Shown here: piece after piece, positions 5,555 through 24,103 of the stretch
Numbering within the stretch: the first letter of the stretch is position 1
How the letters are laid out: every line of letters starts with the position of its first letter
Source of the DNA: Patescibacteria group bacterium
GTDB taxonomy: Bacteria > Patescibacteriota > Patescibacteriia > Patescibacteriales > UBA12465
Length of the DNA: 24,697 nt
Reading direction: 5' to 3'
Assembly: GCA_022710685.1 (NCBI GenBank)
Contig: JAKLGM010000016.1
Span: forward strand, 1 to 24,697
Translations under genes and position numbers: made by a program
Notes under the pieces: model-generated
The model's input: only the letters and a program-made list of their open reading frames with translations
What the model was told of the DNA's origin: nothing
Databases searched by the model: none

Positions 5555-6901
5555 TTAAAACAGCTCCTTTATCTTACTGGTGCCATAATAATATATATTG
5601 CGTCCCTTTTTTATCGGGCGCAAAAAACCTTTCTGAACCAGAATATTAAGGTCCTTACCGGCCGTCATTTTAGTTATTTGATAAATATTCATGTGCATCT
5701 TCTGGGTTGTTCTCTCCTCTTGGTCACCCGACAAATAGCGCAAAAGATATATCTGCCTTTCGTTTAATTTATACTTTAATTCACCGGCCTTTTTCATCCT
5801 TATGTTGCCCCAAGATTCTTTTTCTAAATATTCAGAAAAATCCCGGACAGCTAACTTTATTTTTCTGATATTATAATCGATAAAATAGGTCAGATCATTA
5901 TCATCTTGTTCGGAATAAACATAAGCCATCTTATATTGGTTAGGGGACTTTTTAATTATTTTAGAAATCGGTAGGTAGACAAAAGCCCAATATCCCTTTC
6001 TGATCAGATACCAATAGAATAGCAAGCGCGCCAACCGGCCATTACCATCGGTGAAAGGATGGAGGTAGCCCAACCAAAAATGAAGCATGATAGCCTTAAT
6101 AACCGGATGGACAAAAGAATCGGTCTCCAGCTCGTCATTAGCAAAGTTTATCAGTAATTTCAATTCTTTATTAACAAAATCAACCTTGGGTGCTTCATGA
6201 TAAATATTACCCGAAGCTTTATCTATAACATAAATATTATCCTTGTCAGTTCTTAGCCTAGGCCGATCGCCTTCGTCATCCTTCGTTTCATTGGTAATCA
6301 TTCGATGCAACTCCAAAAGCAAGGGCAAGCTCATTTTTTCATTTTTGTACTTTTCTTCAATCTCTCGCATAGACAAATAGCTGTTGACTATCATCTGTTC
6401 TGAGGCATTTCTCGGCTTCCGGCCATCACGCAACATTCTCTTCGCTACTTGCCGGCTAGTAGCAGCCCCCTCCAACTGGGAAGAAGCGATAGCCTCTTCC
6501 ATAATTCCTCGGGAAATCAATTTTTGCTTATTTTGCTTATCAATATCAGATTTACGAACAAATAATTCACCTCCGGTATTCATGTCTATTTCATGAAAAA
6601 ATTCTTCTAAGCAGGGAATTTTAATCCATTTAAAATTATCGCCTGATTTATTCTTAATAGGAGACTTTATGCTTTGCGATCCCCTGACAATTTTGACCAA
6701 TTTCCATAGCTCCTCTTTGGTAATCCCGACCGGAGCGGGCTCTTTGTATTTAACATTATCCCAATAAATATATTCCGGCTCAAAAGTCTTTTTCACAAAA
6801 TCAAAGATTATCTCTTTGTTTCTGCTATTTTCAGAGAGAGACTGAATTAGATTTCTTTCTTTAATTTTGGATAAATCTGGCTTTTTCAACTCAAAATACA
6901 T
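5555..6901 (-). CDS. Fic/Doc-family protein (probable AMPylase) with an N-terminal auto-inhibitory helix and a C-terminal winged HTH
   Basis: Canonical Fic motif HPFTDGNGRLARLL (HxFx[DE]GNGRxxR). Upstream inhibitory motif SSQLEG ([ST]xxxE[GN]), as in class II Fic proteins. C-terminal wHTH-like segment (ERQIYLLRYLSG...ITKMTAGKDLNILVQKGFL). The gene is markedly more AT-rich than its neighbours. Confidence 0.9.
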   Translation of the reverse strand: MYFELKKPDLSKIKERNLIQSLSENSRNKEIIFDFVKKTFEPEYIYWDNVKYKEPAPVGITKEELWKLVKIVRGSQSIKSPIKNKSGDNFKWIKIPCLEEFFHEIDMNTGGELFVRKSDIDKQNKQKLISRGIMEEAIASSQLEGAATSRQVAKRMLRDGRKPRNASEQMIVNSYLSMREIEEKYKNEKMSLPLLLELHRMITNETKDDEGDRPRLRTDKDNIYVIDKASGNIYHEAPKVDFVNKELKLLINFANDELETDSFVHPVIKAIMLHFWLGYLHPFTDGNGRLARLLFYWYLIRKGYWAFVYLPISKIIKKSPNQYKMAYVYSEQDDNDLTYFIDYNIRKIKLAVRDFSEYLEKESWGNIRMKKAGELKYKLNERQIYLLRYLSGDQEERTTQKMHMNIYQITKMTAGKDLNILVQKGFLRPIKKGRNIYYYGTSKIKELF

Positions 6902-11631: not shown

Positions 11632-11665
11632 TAAAAGAAAAACGCCAATTCTATTGGCGTTTTTG
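11632..11665. terminator. Rho-independent terminator after pilin-like gene 1
   Basis: AACGCCAAT-tct-ATTGGCGTT flanked by A- and T-runs. On the minus strand it is followed by TTTTCTTTT. Confidence 0.7.
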
Positions 11666-11686: not shown

Positions 11687-13192
11687 CTATTGATAATTTC
11701 CTAGCTGATCGGTTTTCATTAAATAAATATCATTATCATTAACATCAGACGAACCAGAGATAATATAGCCGCCATCTGAGGTCTGCTGGATGCTGGCAAA
11801 ATCGATATTTCCGAGGGCTATTTCAGTCTGAGCCCAGGTTAACACTCCGGCAGAATCAGTTTTGACCAAATAAAAATCAGAATCAGTGACATGAGTCTGG
11901 CCGGCTATAATATAGCCACCATCGGCTGTTTGATCAACGGAATAAGCGTCCTGACTATTAGTACCACCGATGCTCTGCTCCCAAGTGACGTTGCCGCTAG
12001 AATCAGTTTTGACTAAATAGACGTCACCATCATTAGCATTAGTACTGCCAGTAATAATATAGCCTCCATCAGTTGTTTGTTGGACAGCCCGTCCGGATTG
12101 AACATCGGCACCACCTATATTCTGCTCCCAAGTGACGTTGCCGCTAGAATCAGTTTTAACCAAGTAAACGTCCCAATCATTAGCATCGGACAAACCAGAG
12201 ATAATATAGCCGCCATCAGCTGCCTGCTGGACAAAACTGCCCGTTTGATAGCCGACACCGCCGATATTCTGCTCCCAAGTGACGTTGCCGCTAATATCGG
12301 TTTTCACTAAATAGACATCATTGTCGTGAACATCAGTATTGCCGGCTATAATATAACCACCATCGGCTGTTTGATCAACGGAATAAGCGTCCTGACTATT
12401 AGTACCACCGATGCTCTGATCCCAAGTAACATTGCCGCTAGAATCAGTTTTAACTAAGTAAACATTAGAATCAGAACCGGTCGCATCATCAATGCCAACG
12501 ATAATATAACCGCCGTCAGTTGTTTGCTGGACGACTCCCGCTTCCTGATAGCCAGCGCCACCGATTTCTTGGTGCCAGGATTCTATTCCATTAGAATCCA
12601 CTTTCAATAAATACATATTGCCATTAGGATCGCTGGCATAGCTGGCGCCAGAAATAATATAACCACCGTCTGATGTTTGATCAACAGAAGCAGATGTTTG
12701 GTTGCCTGGACCGCCATACAGCAAAGCAAACATTGCCAAGGAGGAACAATCTACATCCATAATACCGGCCGGGGTAAGACATTTGGGACCACTATCTAGG
12801 GTGCCAGTAGTGTTACCCAAACAGAAAGAGACGGTATAAGAATTACCATTTTCGGTCTGTTGGTAAGAGAAAGTGTTTTGGCCGGATGTGCAAGAGCCAT
12901 CAACCGGAGTCGGAGCCGAAGGGATAATCTGCATATAAGTCGAGGTGCCGTAGGTAGAAGTAGAAAAAATAGAGCCAGAAGCAAACTCCTCCGCTGTCGG
13001 ATAGCGGTTTTTATCATTAAAAAATAATTCCAAGGCGGTCTGAACCTGTTTCATATCACCCGCCCTTCTCGCATCTCGGGCTTTAGCCCGCGCGCTGGAT
13101 AAAGCTATGACTGAAACCGTGGCGATAACGCCGATAATGGCGATAACCACCAGAAGCTCTATTAAAGTGAAGGCTTTTTTTAACCTAAACAT
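11687..13192 (-). CDS. Type IV pilin-like protein (prepilin N-terminal methylation-site/TM helix) fused to ~7 tandem SBBP-like beta-propeller repeats
   Basis: N-terminus MFRLKKAFTLIELLVVIAIIGVIA (class III signal). Conserved pilin head (SAPTPVDGSCTS..FCLGNTTGTLDSGPKCLTP). Then repeats of about 49 aa (DGGYII.G.....D.YLVKTDSSGNVTWEQ.IGG.....S..QT.). The DNA carries near-exact ~110-bp copies 441 bp apart. Confidence 0.85.
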   Translation of the reverse strand: MFRLKKAFTLIELLVVIAIIGVIATVSVIALSSARAKARDARRAGDMKQVQTALELFFNDKNRYPTAEEFASGSIFSTSTYGTSTYMQIIPSAPTPVDGSCTSGQNTFSYQQTENGNSYTVSFCLGNTTGTLDSGPKCLTPAGIMDVDCSSLAMFALLYGGPGNQTSASVDQTSDGGYIISGASYASDPNGNMYLLKVDSNGIESWHQEIGGAGYQEAGVVQQTTDGGYIIVGIDDATGSDSNVYLVKTDSSGNVTWDQSIGGTNSQDAYSVDQTADGGYIIAGNTDVHDNDVYLVKTDISGNVTWEQNIGGVGYQTGSFVQQAADGGYIISGLSDANDWDVYLVKTDSSGNVTWEQNIGGADVQSGRAVQQTTDGGYIITGSTNANDGDVYLVKTDSSGNVTWEQSIGGTNSQDAYSVDQTADGGYIIAGQTHVTDSDFYLVKTDSAGVLTWAQTEIALGNIDFASIQQTSDGGYIISGSSDVNDNDIYLMKTDQLGNYQ

Positions 13193-13288
13193 AAAAACCT
13201 GTTAATTTGTTATCTTCTAGCGCCGCTATAGGCAATAGCTCGAACGATATTCCAAGCCAAAGAGTTAAAGCCATAAATAAAATCAAGT

Positions 13289-15070
13289 TTATTCTATGAT
13301 ATAAGGGCCATAAACATTCAAGTTGGTGGCGGAGCTAGTCAAGCTCAATCCTGTCCCCGAAAGAGCACCTGCTTGGCTAGAAATATTGGGATCAGTTATA
13401 TCTAAATTACTGTCAACAACGGTCGGGGCGTAAGGAGAAACTGTAAAAATAGAGGAAGCTGAGCCAGTATCGCTAGAAACAAAATTCGGCTTTATTTTCA
13501 TAAACCCAGCGCTACTGCCAAAAATAGTTCCTCCTAGATCATCATACTCATCAAGATAAGAGCCAATATACAAATCTGGACCATCAGCCCAGCAAACATA
13601 GCCTTCTTCATACCCCCAAGTATCAAGATTCCTCTCACGAATTACCTCGCTACCCATCAAAGATAGATCATTCCGATTAATACTAGTCACCCAGATATCG
13701 CCACTGCCATCATTGGAAGACCCGGTATAACCAACACCATAAATCGAGCCCCCGGAAAGACAGAGGGAGCCAAAATAATCCAATGCCGAACCGCCATAAA
13801 TCTTCCTGCCTAAAAGGCTGAGGTCTGATTTATCAAATTTTAATATTACAGCACTGCGGCCGCCCGGACCCTCTCCGATAATCTGGCCATAAGCATAATA
13901 ATAGTCGCTATCAATAGCTCCCCTAAATCCCTGAAAAAAAGTAATTCCGGAACGGCCATAAGCATTCTCCGCTTCAACCGCCATCGTAGTTTTGTTAATC
14001 TTTAGGGCGACCAAAGGGCTATTTCCAAGAACGGCGGATAAATACAAATAATTACCATCGGAAGCCAATGATCTGATATTGCTAGCATAAGAATTTTGCT
14101 TAATCAAATTTAAATCAAAATCATAAACCATCACCGTGTTATCAATCCCGACATATAAGTAACTATCATCCTTAGCTATACTATATATATAATTTAAGCT
14201 GCCGTTACCAAGACTTAAAGCCGAAACCAACGATAAATCGGATTTATTAAATTTTGCCAGAACTCCATCTTGACTGCTGATATTACGATTGATAATTCCC
14301 GCCGCATAAATATAATTACCCTGCTCAACAATGGCATGAAAATAATCTTTACCGGTGCCACCATAAATTCTTTTAGCTGCTATAGTCAAATCTGTTTTAT
14401 CATATTTAATAATCATTCCATCGGTCTGGCCGGCGCCCTCAGATCCGTTATCGCCAACGGCATAAATATACTGAGAATCTGAAGTCAAGTCATATATTTC
14501 CTTGTTGGTTGAATCAGTATTCCCATAAATCTGGGCAAAGAAAAAATTATCCTTTAGAACACACGAACCAGACTGACAGGCATAACCATAATCGCAGGTC
14601 GGATCGCAAGGAACGGAACTGGCGCTACAATCTAAATCTAAAATTCCACCTGGGGTAAGACATTTGGGGCCACTATCTAAGGTGCCAGTAGTATTGCCTA
14701 AACAGAAAGAAATAGTATAGGAATTACCGTTCTCAGTTTGGGTATAATAAAAACTATTTTGGTCGGAAGTACAGCTTCCGTCTACTGGGGTCGGAGCGGA
14801 AGGGATAATCTGCATATAAGTAGAAGTACCGTAGGTAGAAGTAGAAAAAATTGACCCTAGGGCAAATTCTTCCATAGTGGGATAACGGTTTTTGTCGTTG
14901 AAAAATAACTCTAGGGCTGTTTGAATCTGCTTCATATCACCCGCTCTTTTAGCATCGCGGGACTTAGCTCGGGCGTTTTGAAGGGCAATGATAGAAATAG
15001 TGGCTAAAACGCCAATAATAGCGATAACTACCAACAACTCAATGAGAGTAAAAGCGCGCTTGATCTTCAT
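13289..15070 (-). CDS. Type IV pilin-like protein, paralog of the preceding gene, with a different C-terminal beta-propeller-like repeat domain
   Basis: N-terminus MKIKRAFTLIELLVVIAIIGVLA. Its first ~150 aa are nearly identical to those of gene 11687-13192. This is followed by a Cys-rich linker (CSASSVPCDPTCDYGYACQSGSCV) and YIY..G/KxDLSL repeat units. Confidence 0.85.
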   Translation of the reverse strand: MKIKRAFTLIELLVVIAIIGVLATISIIALQNARAKSRDAKRAGDMKQIQTALELFFNDKNRYPTMEEFALGSIFSTSTYGTSTYMQIIPSAPTPVDGSCTSDQNSFYYTQTENGNSYTISFCLGNTTGTLDSGPKCLTPGGILDLDCSASSVPCDPTCDYGYACQSGSCVLKDNFFFAQIYGNTDSTNKEIYDLTSDSQYIYAVGDNGSEGAGQTDGMIIKYDKTDLTIAAKRIYGGTGKDYFHAIVEQGNYIYAAGIINRNISSQDGVLAKFNKSDLSLVSALSLGNGSLNYIYSIAKDDSYLYVGIDNTVMVYDFDLNLIKQNSYASNIRSLASDGNYLYLSAVLGNSPLVALKINKTTMAVEAENAYGRSGITFFQGFRGAIDSDYYYAYGQIIGEGPGGRSAVILKFDKSDLSLLGRKIYGGSALDYFGSLCLSGGSIYGVGYTGSSNDGSGDIWVTSINRNDLSLMGSEVIRERNLDTWGYEEGYVCWADGPDLYIGSYLDEYDDLGGTIFGSSAGFMKIKPNFVSSDTGSASSIFTVSPYAPTVVDSNLDITDPNISSQAGALSGTGLSLTSSATNLNVYGPYIIE

Positions 15071-15262
15071 AAAAATGTTAATATTTTAATTGTTACTCAC
15101 GTAAATTTTAAAAATAAGCCGCCAAGAACCTCAATAGAAAAAGCATCACTGCTACAATTTGCCAAGACAAACGATTTTCTGCCTTGATATAACCGCCGAT
15201 ACCCATCTATAGGCGAATCTTAAAATACTCAACATTCGGGCAACTTTACACGTTTTATAATG

Positions 15263-15333
15263 CACGGGATGTAGGAATCGAACCCACGACTGACGGTTTG
15301 GAGCCGTCCATTATACCACTTAACTAATCCCGC
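15263..15333 (-). tRNA. tRNA-Trp (anticodon CCA)
   Basis: Manual fold of the reverse complement GCGGGAT-TA-GTTA-AGTGGTA-TAAT-G-GACGG-CTCCAAA-CCGTC-AGTC-GTGGG-TTCGATT-CCTAC-ATCCCGT-G. Acceptor stem with G1-U72. Anticodon loop CU-CCA-AA. TTCGA T-loop. The 3' CCA is not encoded. A TAAAAT -10-like element lies about 9 nt upstream. Confidence 0.75.
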
Positions 15334-17875: not shown

Positions 17876-17908
17876 ATAAAAAACAACCCTAGAATCAGGG
17901 TTGTTTTG
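17876..17908 (-). terminator. Rho-independent terminator immediately 3' of tRNA-Tyr
   Basis: AACAACCCT-agaatc-AGGGTTGTT. On the minus strand it is followed by TTTTTTATT. Confidence 0.65.
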
Positions 17909-17991
17909 TGGGCCGGGCAGGATTCGGACCTGCGAAGGCGCGAGCCAGCAGATTTACAGTCTGCCCCAGTTGACCGCTTTGGTACCGACCC
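17909..17991 (-). tRNA. tRNA-Tyr (anticodon GTA), long variable arm
   Basis: Reverse complement GGGTCGG-TA-CCAA-AGCGGTCAACTGG-GGCAGA-CTGTAAA-TCTGC-(long variable arm TGGCTCGCGCCTTCGC)-AGG-TCCGAAT-CCTG-CCCGGCCC-A. The architecture parallels E. coli tRNA-Tyr. CCA is not encoded. Confidence 0.8.
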
Positions 17992-18060: not shown

Positions 18061-18477
18061 CTAGGCGCCGACTATATTCCCTAAAATAAATCTGACAGCA
18101 GCGTAAGAAGTAAAAATGATAACCAAACCAATCGCCGCCCACATCAGAATATCTCTACCCTGAGCTATCTTCTTTTCATTGCCGGCCGCCATCATCCAAA
18201 CTAAGCCGCCCCAGATAAACATCAATAAAGCCACCGAGCCTAAGACGCCCAAGATAGCGCTAATAATCTTACCAATTAGTTGCTGGAAGGTGCTGACGCC
18301 CAAAGGATTATCTATGGAAACCGGAGTGCCATAACTAGCCATAACGTCAGAGCTATTATTCTCATTACTAACAGCACCACTAATTCCGCCCGCAACCCCG
18401 CCTTGCGCCAAGGCCGAAGTGGCCGCCAAAAGTAGAAAGGCCAGAAAGATAATGGGAATAATAATTTTTTTAGTCAT
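18061..18477 (-). CDS. Small secreted two-helix membrane protein, TrbC/VirB2-like (T4SS-pilin-like) family; paralog 1
   Basis: Signal peptide MTKKIIIPIIFLAFLLLAATSALA. G/S-rich variable region. Conserved NPLGVSTFQQLIGKIISAILGVLGSVALLMFIWGGLVWMMAAGNEKKIAQGRDILMWAAIGLVIIFTSYAAV two-helix hairpin. The track ORF starts 5 codons earlier at a TTG. The ATG at 18477 is preferred. Confidence 0.7.
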   Translation of the reverse strand: MTKKIIIPIIFLAFLLLAATSALAQGGVAGGISGAVSNENNSSDVMASYGTPVSIDNPLGVSTFQQLIGKIISAILGVLGSVALLMFIWGGLVWMMAAGNEKKIAQGRDILMWAAIGLVIIFTSYAAVRFILGNIVGA

Positions 18478-18501
18478 ATTTTTGTAAAACAAAATAATTA
18501 A

Positions 18502-18960
18502 TTAAGCGCCGATAACATCGCTGATCAGGAACTTGACGGCGGCATAAGAGGTAAAGACAACCGCCATGCCAATAGCCGCCCAGATCAAAATATCACGACC
18601 CTGGGAAACCTTTTTCTCATTACCAGCGGCTGTCATCCAAATGAAACCGCCATAGATGAACATCAAGAGCGCAATAGTACCGATAATGCCTAAGACGGCG
18701 CTGATGATTTTACCAACCAACTGTTGCGGCTTAGTAACCGTGCCCAAGGGATTGGTAAAGGTAACGCTGGACCGTTCAGTGCTCTTTTCTGCTTTAGTGG
18801 TAGTGCACATTACCTGCGGTGTAGCCCCAACCATTACAGTTATCTGCTCCTGCCCCTCCGGACAAGTCCCAGAAGTCCCAGATTGGGCTAAGGCCAAGGG
18901 AGCAATGAAAAAAGATACAAAAGCTAAAAAAGAAACAGAAATGATAGTTTTTCTAAGCAT
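18502..18960 (-). CDS. Small secreted two-helix membrane protein, TrbC/VirB2-like (T4SS-pilin-like) family; paralog 2
   Basis: Signal peptide MLRKTIISVSFLAFVSFFIAPLALA. Cys-containing variable region. Conserved NPLGTVTKPQQLVGKIISAVLGIIGTIALLMFIYGGFIWMTAAGNEKKVSQGRDILIWAAIGMAVVFTSYAAV. The same TTGTTTTACAAAAAT-ATG leader as paralog 1. Confidence 0.7.
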   Translation of the reverse strand: MLRKTIISVSFLAFVSFFIAPLALAQSGTSGTCPEGQEQITVMVGATPQVMCTTTKAEKSTERSSVTFTNPLGTVTKPQQLVGKIISAVLGIIGTIALLMFIYGGFIWMTAAGNEKKVSQGRDILIWAAIGMAVVFTSYAAVKFLISDVIGA

Positions 18961-19014
18961 ATTTTTGTAAAACAAGAGAATTAATAACTACTTATATTAA
19001 ACCATATTTTGGGA

Positions 19015-19054: not shown

Positions 19055-19924
19055 TTATTGCCGGTAAAGCATCAAACTTATCGTTTGCGCTTTGTTGGCT
19101 TTGATATAAAACGTCGCATGATCACGGTGCCCCAGGTCAACTTCGCTCGGACTAGCGCCTCTGACTTTAGTGCCATCGTCAAATACCATAATGTAGTCAA
19201 AGTTCGGATCACTAGAAGTGACTTCGTAGTGAATGAGCTCGGTCGGGTCAATGGCAATCCAGTGAGTTTTGCCTCCAGCCTTCAAGTTGAAGACATAGGG
19301 GGTACTCCGGACGTGGTAGATAACTTTGTCTTGTGAATCCAGGAGCGGCTCGTTCCAGCAAGTATCGGCGTTGACGGGGTGGATAAAATATTCCAGACCA
19401 TCGTTAGAAACCTTGATGGTAGCTATATCTTCCACGTAATCGCGGGAGTAGATATAACCTTTGTCTTGGTTGGTAAACGCCTTGAAATTGCCGTCAGCGT
19501 CGTAATAATTCTGCGTATAGTGCTGCGCGATATGAATGCCCAAGAACAGAAAGAGTGCCAGAGCAGTGGTGTTACCCTTACTCTGAACAGCTGAATCTAA
19601 AACATAGAGCAGGCCGGCAGCGGCACAGAAAATAACGACGGTCTTGGCCCAGAAGTCCCAACCTGGACTGGCAAACCACACGCTGTGATCAAACCAGATC
19701 CAGGAGGCTAAGAGACTGGTAAAGTAGGCAACGCCCAGGCAGAAGAAAAATTTGCCTAAACGAAACAATTTACTGTCCTTGTTATCCTGGTACCAAGCCA
19801 CAAATTTGTCCCAACGGCTCAAACCGTTATTAGCCTCATTAGCGGCATTTGGTGTTGTCGGAGAAGGAGTTCTGTGATGTAGACTCCCCCTCTCTCTTCC
19901 TTTTTTGAATGGTGAATCTTTCAT
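19055..19924 (-). CDS. Membrane protein co-transcribed downstream of the SPFH gene (possible NfeD-like partner)
   Basis: 289 aa. Basic/Pro-rich cytoplasmic N-terminus, about 3 TM helices, and a ~160-aa beta-rich C-terminal domain. A perfect SD (AAGGAGG) lies 8 nt before the ATG, 20 nt after the SPFH stop. Confidence 0.75.
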   Translation of the reverse strand: MKDSPFKKGRERGSLHHRTPSPTTPNAANEANNGLSRWDKFVAWYQDNKDSKLFRLGKFFFCLGVAYFTSLLASWIWFDHSVWFASPGWDFWAKTVVIFCAAAGLLYVLDSAVQSKGNTTALALFLFLGIHIAQHYTQNYYDADGNFKAFTNQDKGYIYSRDYVEDIATIKVSNDGLEYFIHPVNADTCWNEPLLDSQDKVIYHVRSTPYVFNLKAGGKTHWIAIDPTELIHYEVTSSDPNFDYIMVFDDGTKVRGASPSEVDLGHRDHATFYIKANKAQTISLMLYRQ

Positions 19925-22362: not shown

Positions 22363-23874
22363 CTAATTAGCTGGCTCAAAACCTAGTCGCACTAAATCTT
22401 CTGGCTGAGGTCGAAGATGAACTAGATAGCGACCACGAACCAAGGCAATATCACCCAAATTATATAGCTGGGAAAAGGAAGGCAATTGGTACCATAACCC
22501 CACCAAAGCGCAGTTATTATTTTGCTTATATTCTGAATCTACCACTACTGCATCTTGCGGCCGCCGGTTATCAATTTCCTGATGCCTAGCCATAACATCA
22601 GGGATAAAATAATCTACATGCTGACTTATTATCCAATCCGTAGCATAAACGCACTTGATATTATTTTGATTTAAAAATTTTTTCAAATATTCTATTCTCT
22701 CAACTTCCGTATAATTATCATTGATTTTAGCAAAAATGTAGTTATGAAAAATAGCGCCACAAATTAAAGAGAAAACGGAATAAACCATTAAAAACCAAAA
22801 TAAAACTCTCCTAAATATAGGGTGAGCGACTTGTTTCGCGGTTGAAACAATTAAAAATACGGCCGGGATAAAAAATGGCAGAAGATAACGATAGGAGAAT
22901 TCACGATCATTGTAAAAAAGCATGAAGATGACAAACAAAACAACAGAAAGTAAAATCGCCAGATTAATTTTCTTTAATTTTTTTACTGATAATAAATATA
23001 AACAAAAAAGAATTGCTAAAATGAAGATACCGATAAAAACCCCGCTGTTAAAAGAGGCCCAGGGGTTAAGTTTTAAACGGGAAACATCAAAAAACCTACC
23101 ACCATAACTAACATAATAATGGCTAATAATATTTTTAATATTTGAAGCTAGCTGCTCAAACCCCAATTTGTTCTGAGATTGATAGCTCTGGCCCAAAAAA
23201 TACAATAAAACCTTAGACCCCAAAAAAGCACCGATTAGGCTAGAGGCGAAAATCAAAACTGACTTAAAATTATAATTCACCAAAAAGTAATAGGCGGCTA
23301 AAGGAAGGGCGACCGGCAGCCACAAGGGTTGAGCGTAATAAATCAACACTAATAATACTCCTATAACTACTGACCGACAGTTATTCTTTTTAGAGACGGC
23401 CAACAGAAAAATTACGCTAGAGGCCAATAGGGCGGTTAAATATCCACCCCGGGCTTTAGTGGCCCAGTCAAACCAAGCCGGGACAGACGATGCAAAAAGA
23501 GTGGCCAGCAAGGCCCATTTTCGGCTATTAAATATTTTTTTGCCGGCATAATAAAGAACTATTATACTTGCCAGCCAAAGCAAAAGCATGGCTATTTTCA
23601 TGCTAAAAATATTGATACCAAAAAAGAACCCCAATATTGCTCCCAGTAGAACCTCAAAAGAAACAAAACCATAATTTTGACCAGAAAAAAATAATGGCAA
23701 ATCACCATTATTTAAAAAACCTTGAATCATGGTGCCAAATATTGCCTCATCGCCATCTATAAAAAATCCCTTATTTACAAAATAAGCGATCCGGGGTAAA
23801 GAGTTGAACAAAATTATCAAAATAATAAACAAGAAATCTTTGCTTTTTATAACTGTCAGAAACTTTTTAAACAT
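22363..23874 (-). CDS. Polytopic GT-C fold glycosyltransferase (ArnT/PMT-like, family 39/83-type)
   Basis: 503 aa, 11 or more TM helices, with an N-terminal periplasmic-loop acidic motif (FFIDGDEAIFG). Very AT-rich. In an operon with the GT2 gene. Confidence 0.75.
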   Translation of the reverse strand: MFKKFLTVIKSKDFLFIILIILFNSLPRIAYFVNKGFFIDGDEAIFGTMIQGFLNNGDLPLFFSGQNYGFVSFEVLLGAILGFFFGINIFSMKIAMLLLWLASIIVLYYAGKKIFNSRKWALLATLFASSVPAWFDWATKARGGYLTALLASSVIFLLAVSKKNNCRSVVIGVLLVLIYYAQPLWLPVALPLAAYYFLVNYNFKSVLIFASSLIGAFLGSKVLLYFLGQSYQSQNKLGFEQLASNIKNIISHYYVSYGGRFFDVSRLKLNPWASFNSGVFIGIFILAILFCLYLLSVKKLKKINLAILLSVVLFVIFMLFYNDREFSYRYLLPFFIPAVFLIVSTAKQVAHPIFRRVLFWFLMVYSVFSLICGAIFHNYIFAKINDNYTEVERIEYLKKFLNQNNIKCVYATDWIISQHVDYFIPDVMARHQEIDNRRPQDAVVVDSEYKQNNNCALVGLWYQLPSFSQLYNLGDIALVRGRYLVHLRPQPEDLVRLGFEPAN

Positions 23875-24026: not shown

Positions 24027-24030
24027 CTTG

Positions 24031-24103
24031 AGCCGTCGACCGGGATTGAACCGGTGACCTTCTCCTTACCATGGAGATGCTCTACCAGCTGAGCTACGAC
24101 GGC
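24031..24103 (-). tRNA. tRNA-Thr (anticodon GGT)
   Basis: Reverse complement GCCGTCG-TA-GCTC-AGCTGGTA-GAGC-A-TCTCC-ATGGTAA-GGAGA-AGGTC-ACCGG-TTCAATC-CCGGT-CGACGGC-T. Perfect 7-bp acceptor stem. CCA is not encoded. The track ORF 23900-24136 is the usual spurious tRNA-antisense ORF. Confidence 0.85.

Follow-up and report, generated by a model that had tools for sequence, protein, structure and literature searches.

Two tandem genes of a Candidatus Falkowbacteria contig encode putative modular type IV pilins with predicted seven-bladed beta-propeller heads

Patescibacteria (Candidate Phyla Radiation, CPR) are thought to lead an attached life on other microbes, and little is known of how they recognize partners except in a few cultivated Saccharibacteria. 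Contig JAKLGM010000016.1, analyzed here over its full length of 24,697 bp (24.7 kb; hereafter the window), derives from Candidatus Falkowbacteria, an uncultivated ultrasmall bacterium of this group, and carries two adjacent genes, B and A, for putative modular type IV pilins. The original prediction for this DNA, made from the letters alone, had described two neighboring pilin-like genes with a shared N-terminal module and different propeller domains. Both open reading frames (ORFs) were recovered where it had placed them, intact, co-oriented and head-to-tail on the minus strand. Statements on pilus machinery in this genome refer to the window. The two genes are composed of the following parts:

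13289..15070, minus strand: gene B, putative modular type IV pilin, 593-aa ORF, stop codon included (N_methyl and TIGR02532 models; AlphaFold2, AF2)
15053..15070, minus strand: gene B leader MKIKRA, 6 aa, basic, Ala at -1 (sequence)
14621..15052, minus strand: gene B mature pilin module, aa 7-150 (AF2; conserved columns; PDB sequence matches)
14546..14620, minus strand: gene B Cys-rich linker, aa 151-175, four further Cys (sequence; predicted local distance difference test, pLDDT, 42-58)
13493..14545, minus strand: gene B predicted seven-bladed beta-propeller head, aa 176-526 (AF2; repeats)
13292..13492, minus strand: gene B predicted beta-rich C-terminal tail, aa 527-593, ending in GPYIIE (AF2; family alignment)
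11687..13192, minus strand: gene A, putative modular type IV pilin, 501-aa ORF, stop codon included (N_methyl and TIGR02532 models; AF2)
13172..13192, minus strand: gene A leader MFRLKKA, 7 aa, basic, Ala at -1 (sequence)
12740..13171, minus strand: gene A mature pilin module, aa 8-151 (alignment to gene B; AF2)
11690..12739, minus strand: gene A predicted seven-bladed beta-propeller head, aa 152-501 (repeats; Tandem Repeats Finder, TRF; AF2; Foldseek)

Both products begin with a class III prepilin signal, in which a hydrophilic leader ends in Ala and is followed by FTLIE with F+1 and E+5 (gene A, MFRLKKA followed by FTLIELLVVIAIIGV; gene B, MKIKRA followed by FTLIELLVVIAIIGV; FTLIELLVVIAIIG stands directly after the Ala in both). 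The Pfam model N_methyl (PF07963) was passed at 28.3 and 29.5 bits (cutoff 21.2) and TIGR02532 at 29.4 and 31.0 bits (cutoff 16.3), and the GspG, Myxococcus PilA and ComGC models gave sub-threshold matches for both proteins. The Ala at -1, which the original prediction had remarked on as replacing the usual Gly, is indeed present in both genes but is no anomaly, since it is the rule among relatives (103 Ala versus 11 Gly; 103/114) and a class 3 signal by definition ends in Gly or Ala (PMC9934059).

Behind the signal, the gene B module displays F+1, E+5, a hydrophobic alpha1N, a long helix, a small beta-sheet and four conserved Cys (C100, C123, C137, C148). The lollipop fold of pilins was predicted by AF2 for both proteins, with an alpha1 of about 50 residues (52 in gene A) and a small beta globule at a pLDDT of 80-96 for the block (gene A, helix at 10-61 with strands at 75-145; gene B, helix at 9-60 with strands at 74-144). 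Sequence matches of the alpha1 region in the PDB (E 1e-8 to 1e-11) were to GspG and to the major pilins Geobacter PilA and Myxococcus PilA, all with solved structures. Judged from sequence and predicted fold, this is a complete T4a/GspG-like pilin module of about 145 aa.

The best local nucleotide alignment of the two modules had 330 of 429 positions identical (76.9%; about 12746-13174 versus 14627-15055), close to the roughly 80% over some 430 bp originally estimated, and the identity ended sharply near codon 150, right after the fourth conserved Cys. At the protein level the mature 145-aa modules were 86% identical (BLASTP E 3e-90, far above chance). Nei-Gojobori estimates for the two modules, or anchors, were dN 0.12, dS 1.76 (saturated) and dN/dS 0.07, and the longest identical run was 23 nt. 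The anchors are thus old paralogs under strong purifying selection, and recent gene conversion between them was ruled out on account of the saturated dS and the short longest identical run. The conservation covers the globular part of the anchor and its Cys as well as the membrane helix, and because purifying selection acts on the whole globule, the module must presumably still fit a filament or an assembly machine.

The gene A head is joined to its pilin module through only about five residues and consists of exactly seven repeats of 49-51 aa (43 in the last) with the anchors DGGYII...YLVKTD (motif DGGYII ... YLVKTDSSGNVTWEQ), seen by TRF as a 147-nt period. In the AF2 model, built on a 110-sequence alignment (pLDDT 91.5; predicted template modeling score, pTM, 0.78), 28 strands form seven four-stranded blades, which bears out the seven blades of about 49 aa in the original description. 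The nearest structural match by Foldseek was the CylK propeller (PDB 7RON, E 5e-20), and seven-bladed Photorhabdus lectins for fucose or O-methyl sugars matched at E ~1e-12 with a template modeling (TM) score of 0.74. Pairwise nucleotide identity among the blades ranged from 49 to 82%. Blades 3 and 6 stand out at 82%, compared with 49-75% for other blade pairs (blades 2-6, 11963-12457), which suggests a younger internal duplication of three blades within this propeller.

Relatives of the gene A head comprise more than 8000 non-pilin proteins of bacteria and archaea, carried on type IX secretion system (T9SS), PKD and lipoprotein carriers, with identities of 40-50% for thousands of them. The delta-60 repeat model TIGR02608 matched gene A at E 1.3e-4 and 21.7 bits, below its cutoff of 76.5, and the DUF5122 model PF17164 had no match to gene A or B in the HMM (hidden Markov model) search. 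Since PF17164 was passed by the pilin relatives P0101, P0129 and P0045 of gene A and not by gene A itself, its head is a divergent relative of the DUF5122/delta-60 group rather than a scored member. A PF26094 label on many relatives reflects a faint, spurious 'HTH_TSHZ3' match and was ignored.

Gene B differs in the parts that follow its module. As originally described, a Cys-rich linker is succeeded by blades of another type: the linker contains four Cys, is kept in the ortholog P0122 and is much enlarged in P0195, and the seven repeats of the head follow the motif D-x-x-Y-[IL]-Y-x-x-G ... K-[FYI]-[DN]-K-x-D-L-S-L ... Y-G-G. The AF2 model (69 sequences; pLDDT 86.1) comprises the pilin lollipop, the linker at low confidence and 28 strands in seven blades, so that the fusion of a pilin N-terminus to a large propeller that had been proposed was recovered in the predictions for both proteins. 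The tail of about 65 aa is predicted to contain strands at 542-590, with a pLDDT of 87-94 over most of its length, and its GPYIIE end is conserved in the family alignment.

The family of the gene B head is small, with 26 proteins found by profile among word-sharing candidates and 441 cluster representatives among 1.84 billion, some of them giant repeat proteins. Heads of this type occur on non-pilin carriers too, with other N-termini, and distant relatives carry DUF5122 or SBBP matches (SBBP in P0249 and P0254). Two such proteins, P0241 and P0244, match phage virion families over their N-terminal 150-600 residues or so (phrog_1220 'head protein', E 1e-57 and 1e-76) and have propeller repeats related to the gene B head in their C-terminal parts; because virion-protein domain and repeats are paired in this way, the head type would also be present on phage particles. 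P0239 joins a gene B-type head to a bacterial pilin N-terminus of another kind (N_methyl E 6e-5), and in P0238 (locus L045, 1716-3497) such a head follows RGGQSSLEFLVAFGLLILVIAI, which by eye resembles an archaeal class III signal and had no HMM support.

The two heads were compared by profile-profile alignment (hhalign), which gave a probability of 99.9% and E 4.5e-31 over 309 columns at 17% identity. They therefore represent different families of one propeller superfamily and not unrelated folds, so that the propellers called different at the outset are separate families but distantly homologous. Both are predicted to be seven-bladed, with 28 strands per head and seven-bladed propellers as the top structural matches. 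CylK was the best solved match of both, and sialidases, tetrathionate hydrolase and virginiamycin B lyase were found among the further propeller matches. By sequence, the PDB search with the heads returned marginal matches only (E ~0.003-0.01), that to CylK at about 21% identity and E ~0.006. A blade pattern of about 50 aa, [ST]-x-D-G-G-Y-I and ...Y-L-x-K-x-D/N-x-x-G, is common to the heads, DUF5122 (PF17164), delta-60 (TIGR02608), SBBP (PF06739) and the CylK propeller. The label 'SBBP-like' in the original prediction could not be upheld, as PF06739 had no match to either protein even at E<=1, and DUF5122 and the delta-60 repeat come closest among named families; of the checks proposed there by HMM and AlphaFold, those for N_methyl and for a propeller came out positive and that for SBBP did not. 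No RCC1 family was present among the Pfam matches of the two proteins.

The remaining features of the window that bear on the pair, together with its tRNA genes, are:

15083..15134, minus strand: overlapping candidates for a sigma-70-like promoter, in the gap from tRNA-Trp to the start of gene B (9/12 consensus matches; weak evidence)
13193..13288, minus strand: spacer of 96 nt between genes B and A (sequence; terminator scan)
11638..11664, minus strand: intrinsic-terminator-like hairpin, 12-bp stem followed by a U-run, 23 nt past the gene A stop
15262-15333, minus strand: tRNA-Trp(CCA), directly upstream of gene B (ARAGORN and Rfam)
17908-17991, minus strand: tRNA-Tyr(GTA) (ARAGORN; without Rfam report at the gathering threshold)
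24030-24103, minus strand: tRNA-Thr(GGT) (ARAGORN, and Rfam at the gathering threshold)

Because the terminator scan found no hairpin of terminator type in the spacer and a strong hairpin with U-run follows gene A, the genes probably form a single transcription unit, B-A. The hairpin (RNA fold -15.2 kcal/mol, z = -3.35) is the likely end of this unit. The Rfam scan returned tRNAs only, and no regulatory RNA upstream of gene B. A phage origin of the genes is not indicated, since the window pilins matched PHROGs only through the pilin signal. The gene B product has an exact match in public protein collections (P0121). The exact 501-aa product of gene A is absent from a collection of 15 billion proteins although that of its neighbor is present there; presumably gene A was missed by the source annotation or called from another start.

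The pair is surrounded by housekeeping genes (L,D-transpeptidase, AI-2E transporter, Fpg, ABC-F, DEAD helicase). At a distance of 3 kb from it, tandem small genes for 143 and 157 aa (18061-18492 and 18502-18975, minus strand) match Pfam T4SS_pilin PF18895 at E 1e-12 and 5e-10; by these matches they encode VirB2-like pilins of a type IV secretion or conjugation-like system reported in Patescibacteria. At 5555-6901 (minus strand), between the DEAD-box helicase and the ABC-F ATPase, lies a gene for a 448-aa protein in which a Fic/DOC domain was matched (E 1.4e-15), and the ORFs at 1317-2243, 19055-19924 and 22363-23874 (all minus strand; 308, 289 and 503 aa) had no Pfam match at E<=1e-3.

In order to place the pair in its family, module-bearing relatives were compared. 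Almost all of them belong to Candidatus Falkowbacteria, and N_methyl was passed by 113 of 117. The heads on this anchor are mostly FISUMP domains, accompanied by LamG, Ig-like and several propeller types; by model, Fib_succ_major (FISUMP) was assigned to 93 of the 117, Flg_new_2 to 7, DUF5122 to 3, LamG to 3 and He_PIG to 2. In a paralog scan of one genome per species, the Falkowbacteria metagenome-assembled genome ELA342 yielded 17 complete module-bearing genes, a lower bound, most of them FISUMP-headed. Saccharibacteria and Doudnabacteria contain head-less pilins of ordinary size that are 45-48% identical. Modular pilins with unlike heads recur in tandem or in clusters at loci L003, where a FISUMP pilin comes after P0123, L046, where one lies near P0129, L129 and L014. 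The cluster at L129 (1585-13770 of contig_4, 478,690 bp) is denser than the window pair, with four modular pilins within 14 kb around P0192: one of 487 aa, one of 583 aa with LVIVD propeller repeats, one of 589 aa of the gene B type and one of at least 1063 aa with FISUMP.

At L016 (1-11409; ELA342 contig 6, JBAXIF010000006.1) a type IV pilus locus was located that is nearly complete, in which pilM, two unassigned membrane-protein genes, pilB (T2SSE, E 2e-120), pilC (T2SSF), a head-less pilin, a modular pilin and three minor pilins follow one another. The modular pilin there has 521 aa and a third propeller type (Kelch/Rax2-like). Over the first 60 residues the head-less pilin (151 aa) is 78-83% identical to the modules of its own genome, 72% to gene A and 78% to gene B. 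Over the globule its identity to the modules is 32-41% only, which appears to set the modules apart, as a class of their own, from the presumed major pilin. The three minor pilins are followed by a 327-aa protein with a Lcl_C/FISUMP-like C-terminus.

Comparison across the family revealed discordant histories of anchors and heads. Anchors under other heads are as close to the window anchors as these are to each other, or closer (P0129, 92% to gene B; P0130 and P0127, 87-88%), and the view of A and B as a near-identical, diverged duplicate has therefore to give way to that of old paralogs. Gene B and its ortholog P0122 share 53% in the anchor and 64% in the head, whereas gene B and P0123 share 82 and 35%, and gene A and P0129 share 89 and 30%, respectively. 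The anchors of ELA342 average 81% identity among themselves versus 71-74% to those of the window. These values point to heads shuffled onto a genome-specific anchor, to concerted evolution of anchors, or to both, in the course of paralog expansion, and their discordance argues for shuffling among paralogs and not for hypervariation at a fixed locus. Furthermore, no pilin module was found within the flanks examined at ten YkuD-orthologous loci (66-75% identity in the downstream YkuD gene), a gene A partner is missing beside P0122, and the gene contexts of P0129, P0122, P0124 and P0009 are all unlike the window; with local gene order rearranged to this extent, there is no orthologous locus at which heads could be compared. 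Diversifying selection on the heads, as originally suggested, was not supported: in P0122, the one clear ortholog of gene B, the head is more conserved than the anchor. From the sequences, the family is lineage-specific and massively expanded, combining one conserved anchor with apparently interchangeable extracellular binding domains.

Taken together, signal, HMM matches and predicted fold identify the products of A and B as pilins, and as modular ones, because their propellers are predicted as separate domains and both head types also occur on non-pilin carriers. It is reasonably probable that the genes encode paralogous modular type IV pilins whose propeller heads are exposed on a filament and bind a ligand, and by analogy a role as adhesins for a partner cell or surface is likely. 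Such a prepilin would enter the membrane via alpha1N and be cut after Ala-1 by the prepilin peptidase of the lineage. A PilB/PilC/PilMNO machine would then build the module into a type IV filament, either at its tip or at low density along its shaft, where the exposed propeller would bind a ligand, most likely a glycan, on a partner or host cell or on a surface. Processing, incorporation, position in the filament, adhesion and ligand are all inferred here.

Several observations weigh against this reading. Neither head passes any curated domain model. The window contains no gene for a prepilin peptidase, an assembly ATPase or a platform protein (for PilD, the search did not extend beyond the window); of the machinery that the original prediction had proposed to look for, pilB and pilC were encountered in a related genome only, at L016. 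A head of 38-48 kDa on a very short linker, as in gene A, may be hard to fit except at a filament tip, yet the module resembles a major pilin and not the minor pilins that prime a tip. In addition, a propeller fold alone is no sign of binding, as CylK, to which the heads come closest among solved structures, is an enzyme, and it is unclear whether at least 17 paralogs per genome could all serve as filament subunits.

The last point leads to an unlikely but substantial alternative, namely display on the cell surface with no pilus involved. In this case the class III signal and module would be only a device for export and anchoring, in a short pseudopilus or a membrane- or wall-anchored stalk, and arrayed binders would capture nutrients or substrates, for which the archaeal 'bindosome' of Sulfolobus, composed of sugar-binding proteins with class III signals, provides a model. 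A paralog number above that of the subunits used by any known pilus, the scattering of module genes over the genome outside the pilus operon, the window free of machinery genes and the strong difference in the globule between the modules and the head-less pilin beside pilC would all agree with it. A mere anchor, however, would not need the whole 145-aa globule and its four Cys to be kept under strong purifying selection. The modular pilin of L016 sits inside a pilus gene cluster, and the modular pilins characterized so far are borne on filaments (PMC8179133, PMC9934059, PMC11623550).

Improbable, and more so than pilus-free display, is the proposal that the propellers are enzymes tethered to a pilus or surface, with CylK-, lyase- or glycosidase-like activity that alters or degrades the envelope of a partner. 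The nature of the best solved match and the sialidase, tetrathionate hydrolase and virginiamycin B lyase matches speak in its favor, and peptidase-type modules are listed among modular pilins by Raynaud et al. (PMC8179133). On the other side, the match to CylK is remote in sequence (about 21% identity, E ~0.006), and neither protein has a catalytic-family HMM match. The N-terminal Ca-binding domain of CylK, described by the depositors, is absent from A and B. The near-uniform blades of gene A are, moreover, typical of lectin-like multivalent binders rather than of a protein with a single active site. Finally, a recent local duplication whose heads diverged rapidly in place over a constant anchor, under diversifying selection, is formally possible given the distant homology of the heads (17%, 309 columns, hhalign 99.9%) and fits the adjacency, common orientation and 86% identical anchors of the pair, but it is largely refuted and most improbable on this sequence evidence, as the anchor dS is about 1.8 with no long identical tract, each anchor is at least as close to anchors under other heads, closer head relatives exist elsewhere (40-50% in thousands of non-pilins for A; 64% in P0122 for B), and the tandem pair is missing beside the P0122 ortholog and at the YkuD-orthologous loci.

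With filament-borne adhesive pilins as the preferred reading, A and B can be set beside known systems. Modular pilins were cataloged by Raynaud et al. in 2021 as more than 1200 proteins in 264 architectures, with Candidatus Falkowbacteria, Magasanikbacteria and FISUMP (IPR011871) among them (PMC8179133), and their presence in Falkowbacteria had thus been noted already (PMC8179133; PMC9934059). Like these, A and B unite a class III signal and a small pilin module, by way of a short linker, with a bulky module that is not pilus-specific and for which ligand binding is predicted or, in some cases, shown in the cataloged proteins; unlike them, their heads are predicted seven-bladed propellers unrecognized by curated domain models. 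The adhesive modular pilins PilB (vWA module) and PilC (lectin module) of S. sanguinis bind protein or glycan and are modeled at the tip (PMC8179133, PMC9934059). In contrast to these, the A and B module is major-pilin/GspG-like and keeps E5, and the two modular pilins and tip complex of S. sanguinis stand against at least 17 family copies in one small genome.

A functional parallel is PilX2 of TM7x (Nanosynbacter lyticus, Saccharibacteria), a minor pilin published in 2024 that bears a heptabladed propeller and is required for host binding, which fell by half on its deletion (PMC11623550). PilX2 is described as having a propeller of the RCC1-repeat type and no predicted PilD signal (PMC11623550), and it is encoded in a pilus locus, whereas A and B have a canonical signal and blades of the DUF5122/SBBP superfamily and lie among housekeeping genes; since they lack both RCC1 repeats and the non-canonical signal, the likeness is functional only. 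The PilY1/PilC tip adhesin of diderm type IVa pili is likewise a beta-propeller shown by a type IV pilus for adhesion (PMC8179133), but PilY1 is no pilin: it binds to a complex of minor pilins, and its propeller forms a separate family, IPR008707, to which A and B had no match. DUF5122, delta-60 and SBBP propellers usually ride on T9SS, PKD or lipoprotein carriers; the heads of A and B are found on pilins and score below the model cutoffs.

A tentative extension of these findings, itself rather unlikely, is that Falkowbacteria maintain a 'pilin display library' of one to two dozen modular pilins per genome of about 1 Mb, with an anchor co-evolving genome by genome, heads that are swapped, and the B-A pair as one cassette in a repertoire for host or surface recognition. 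The heads of such a library may come from a pan-prokaryotic pool of extracellular binding domains shared in part with phage virion proteins and with another bacterial pilin type, and possibly also with archaeal-type pilins. If true, this would amount to combinatorial recognition resembling the swapping of phage receptor-binding proteins, possibly with differential expression of single heads.

The design itself is already published, in the modular pilins of 2021 and in the propeller-headed, host-binding Patescibacteria pilin of 2024, and no new mechanism is revealed. Less expected are the features at the level of the family, that is the number of paralogs per genome, the clustering of anchors by genome and the gene B-type propeller on other carriers. 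The family context, with at least 17 paralogs, genome-wise anchors and widely shared heads, provides candidates for expression, binding and structural work, and A and B are two clear, well-modeled illustrations of a route by which the type IV filaments of an uncultivated lineage could gain diversity at their binding end.

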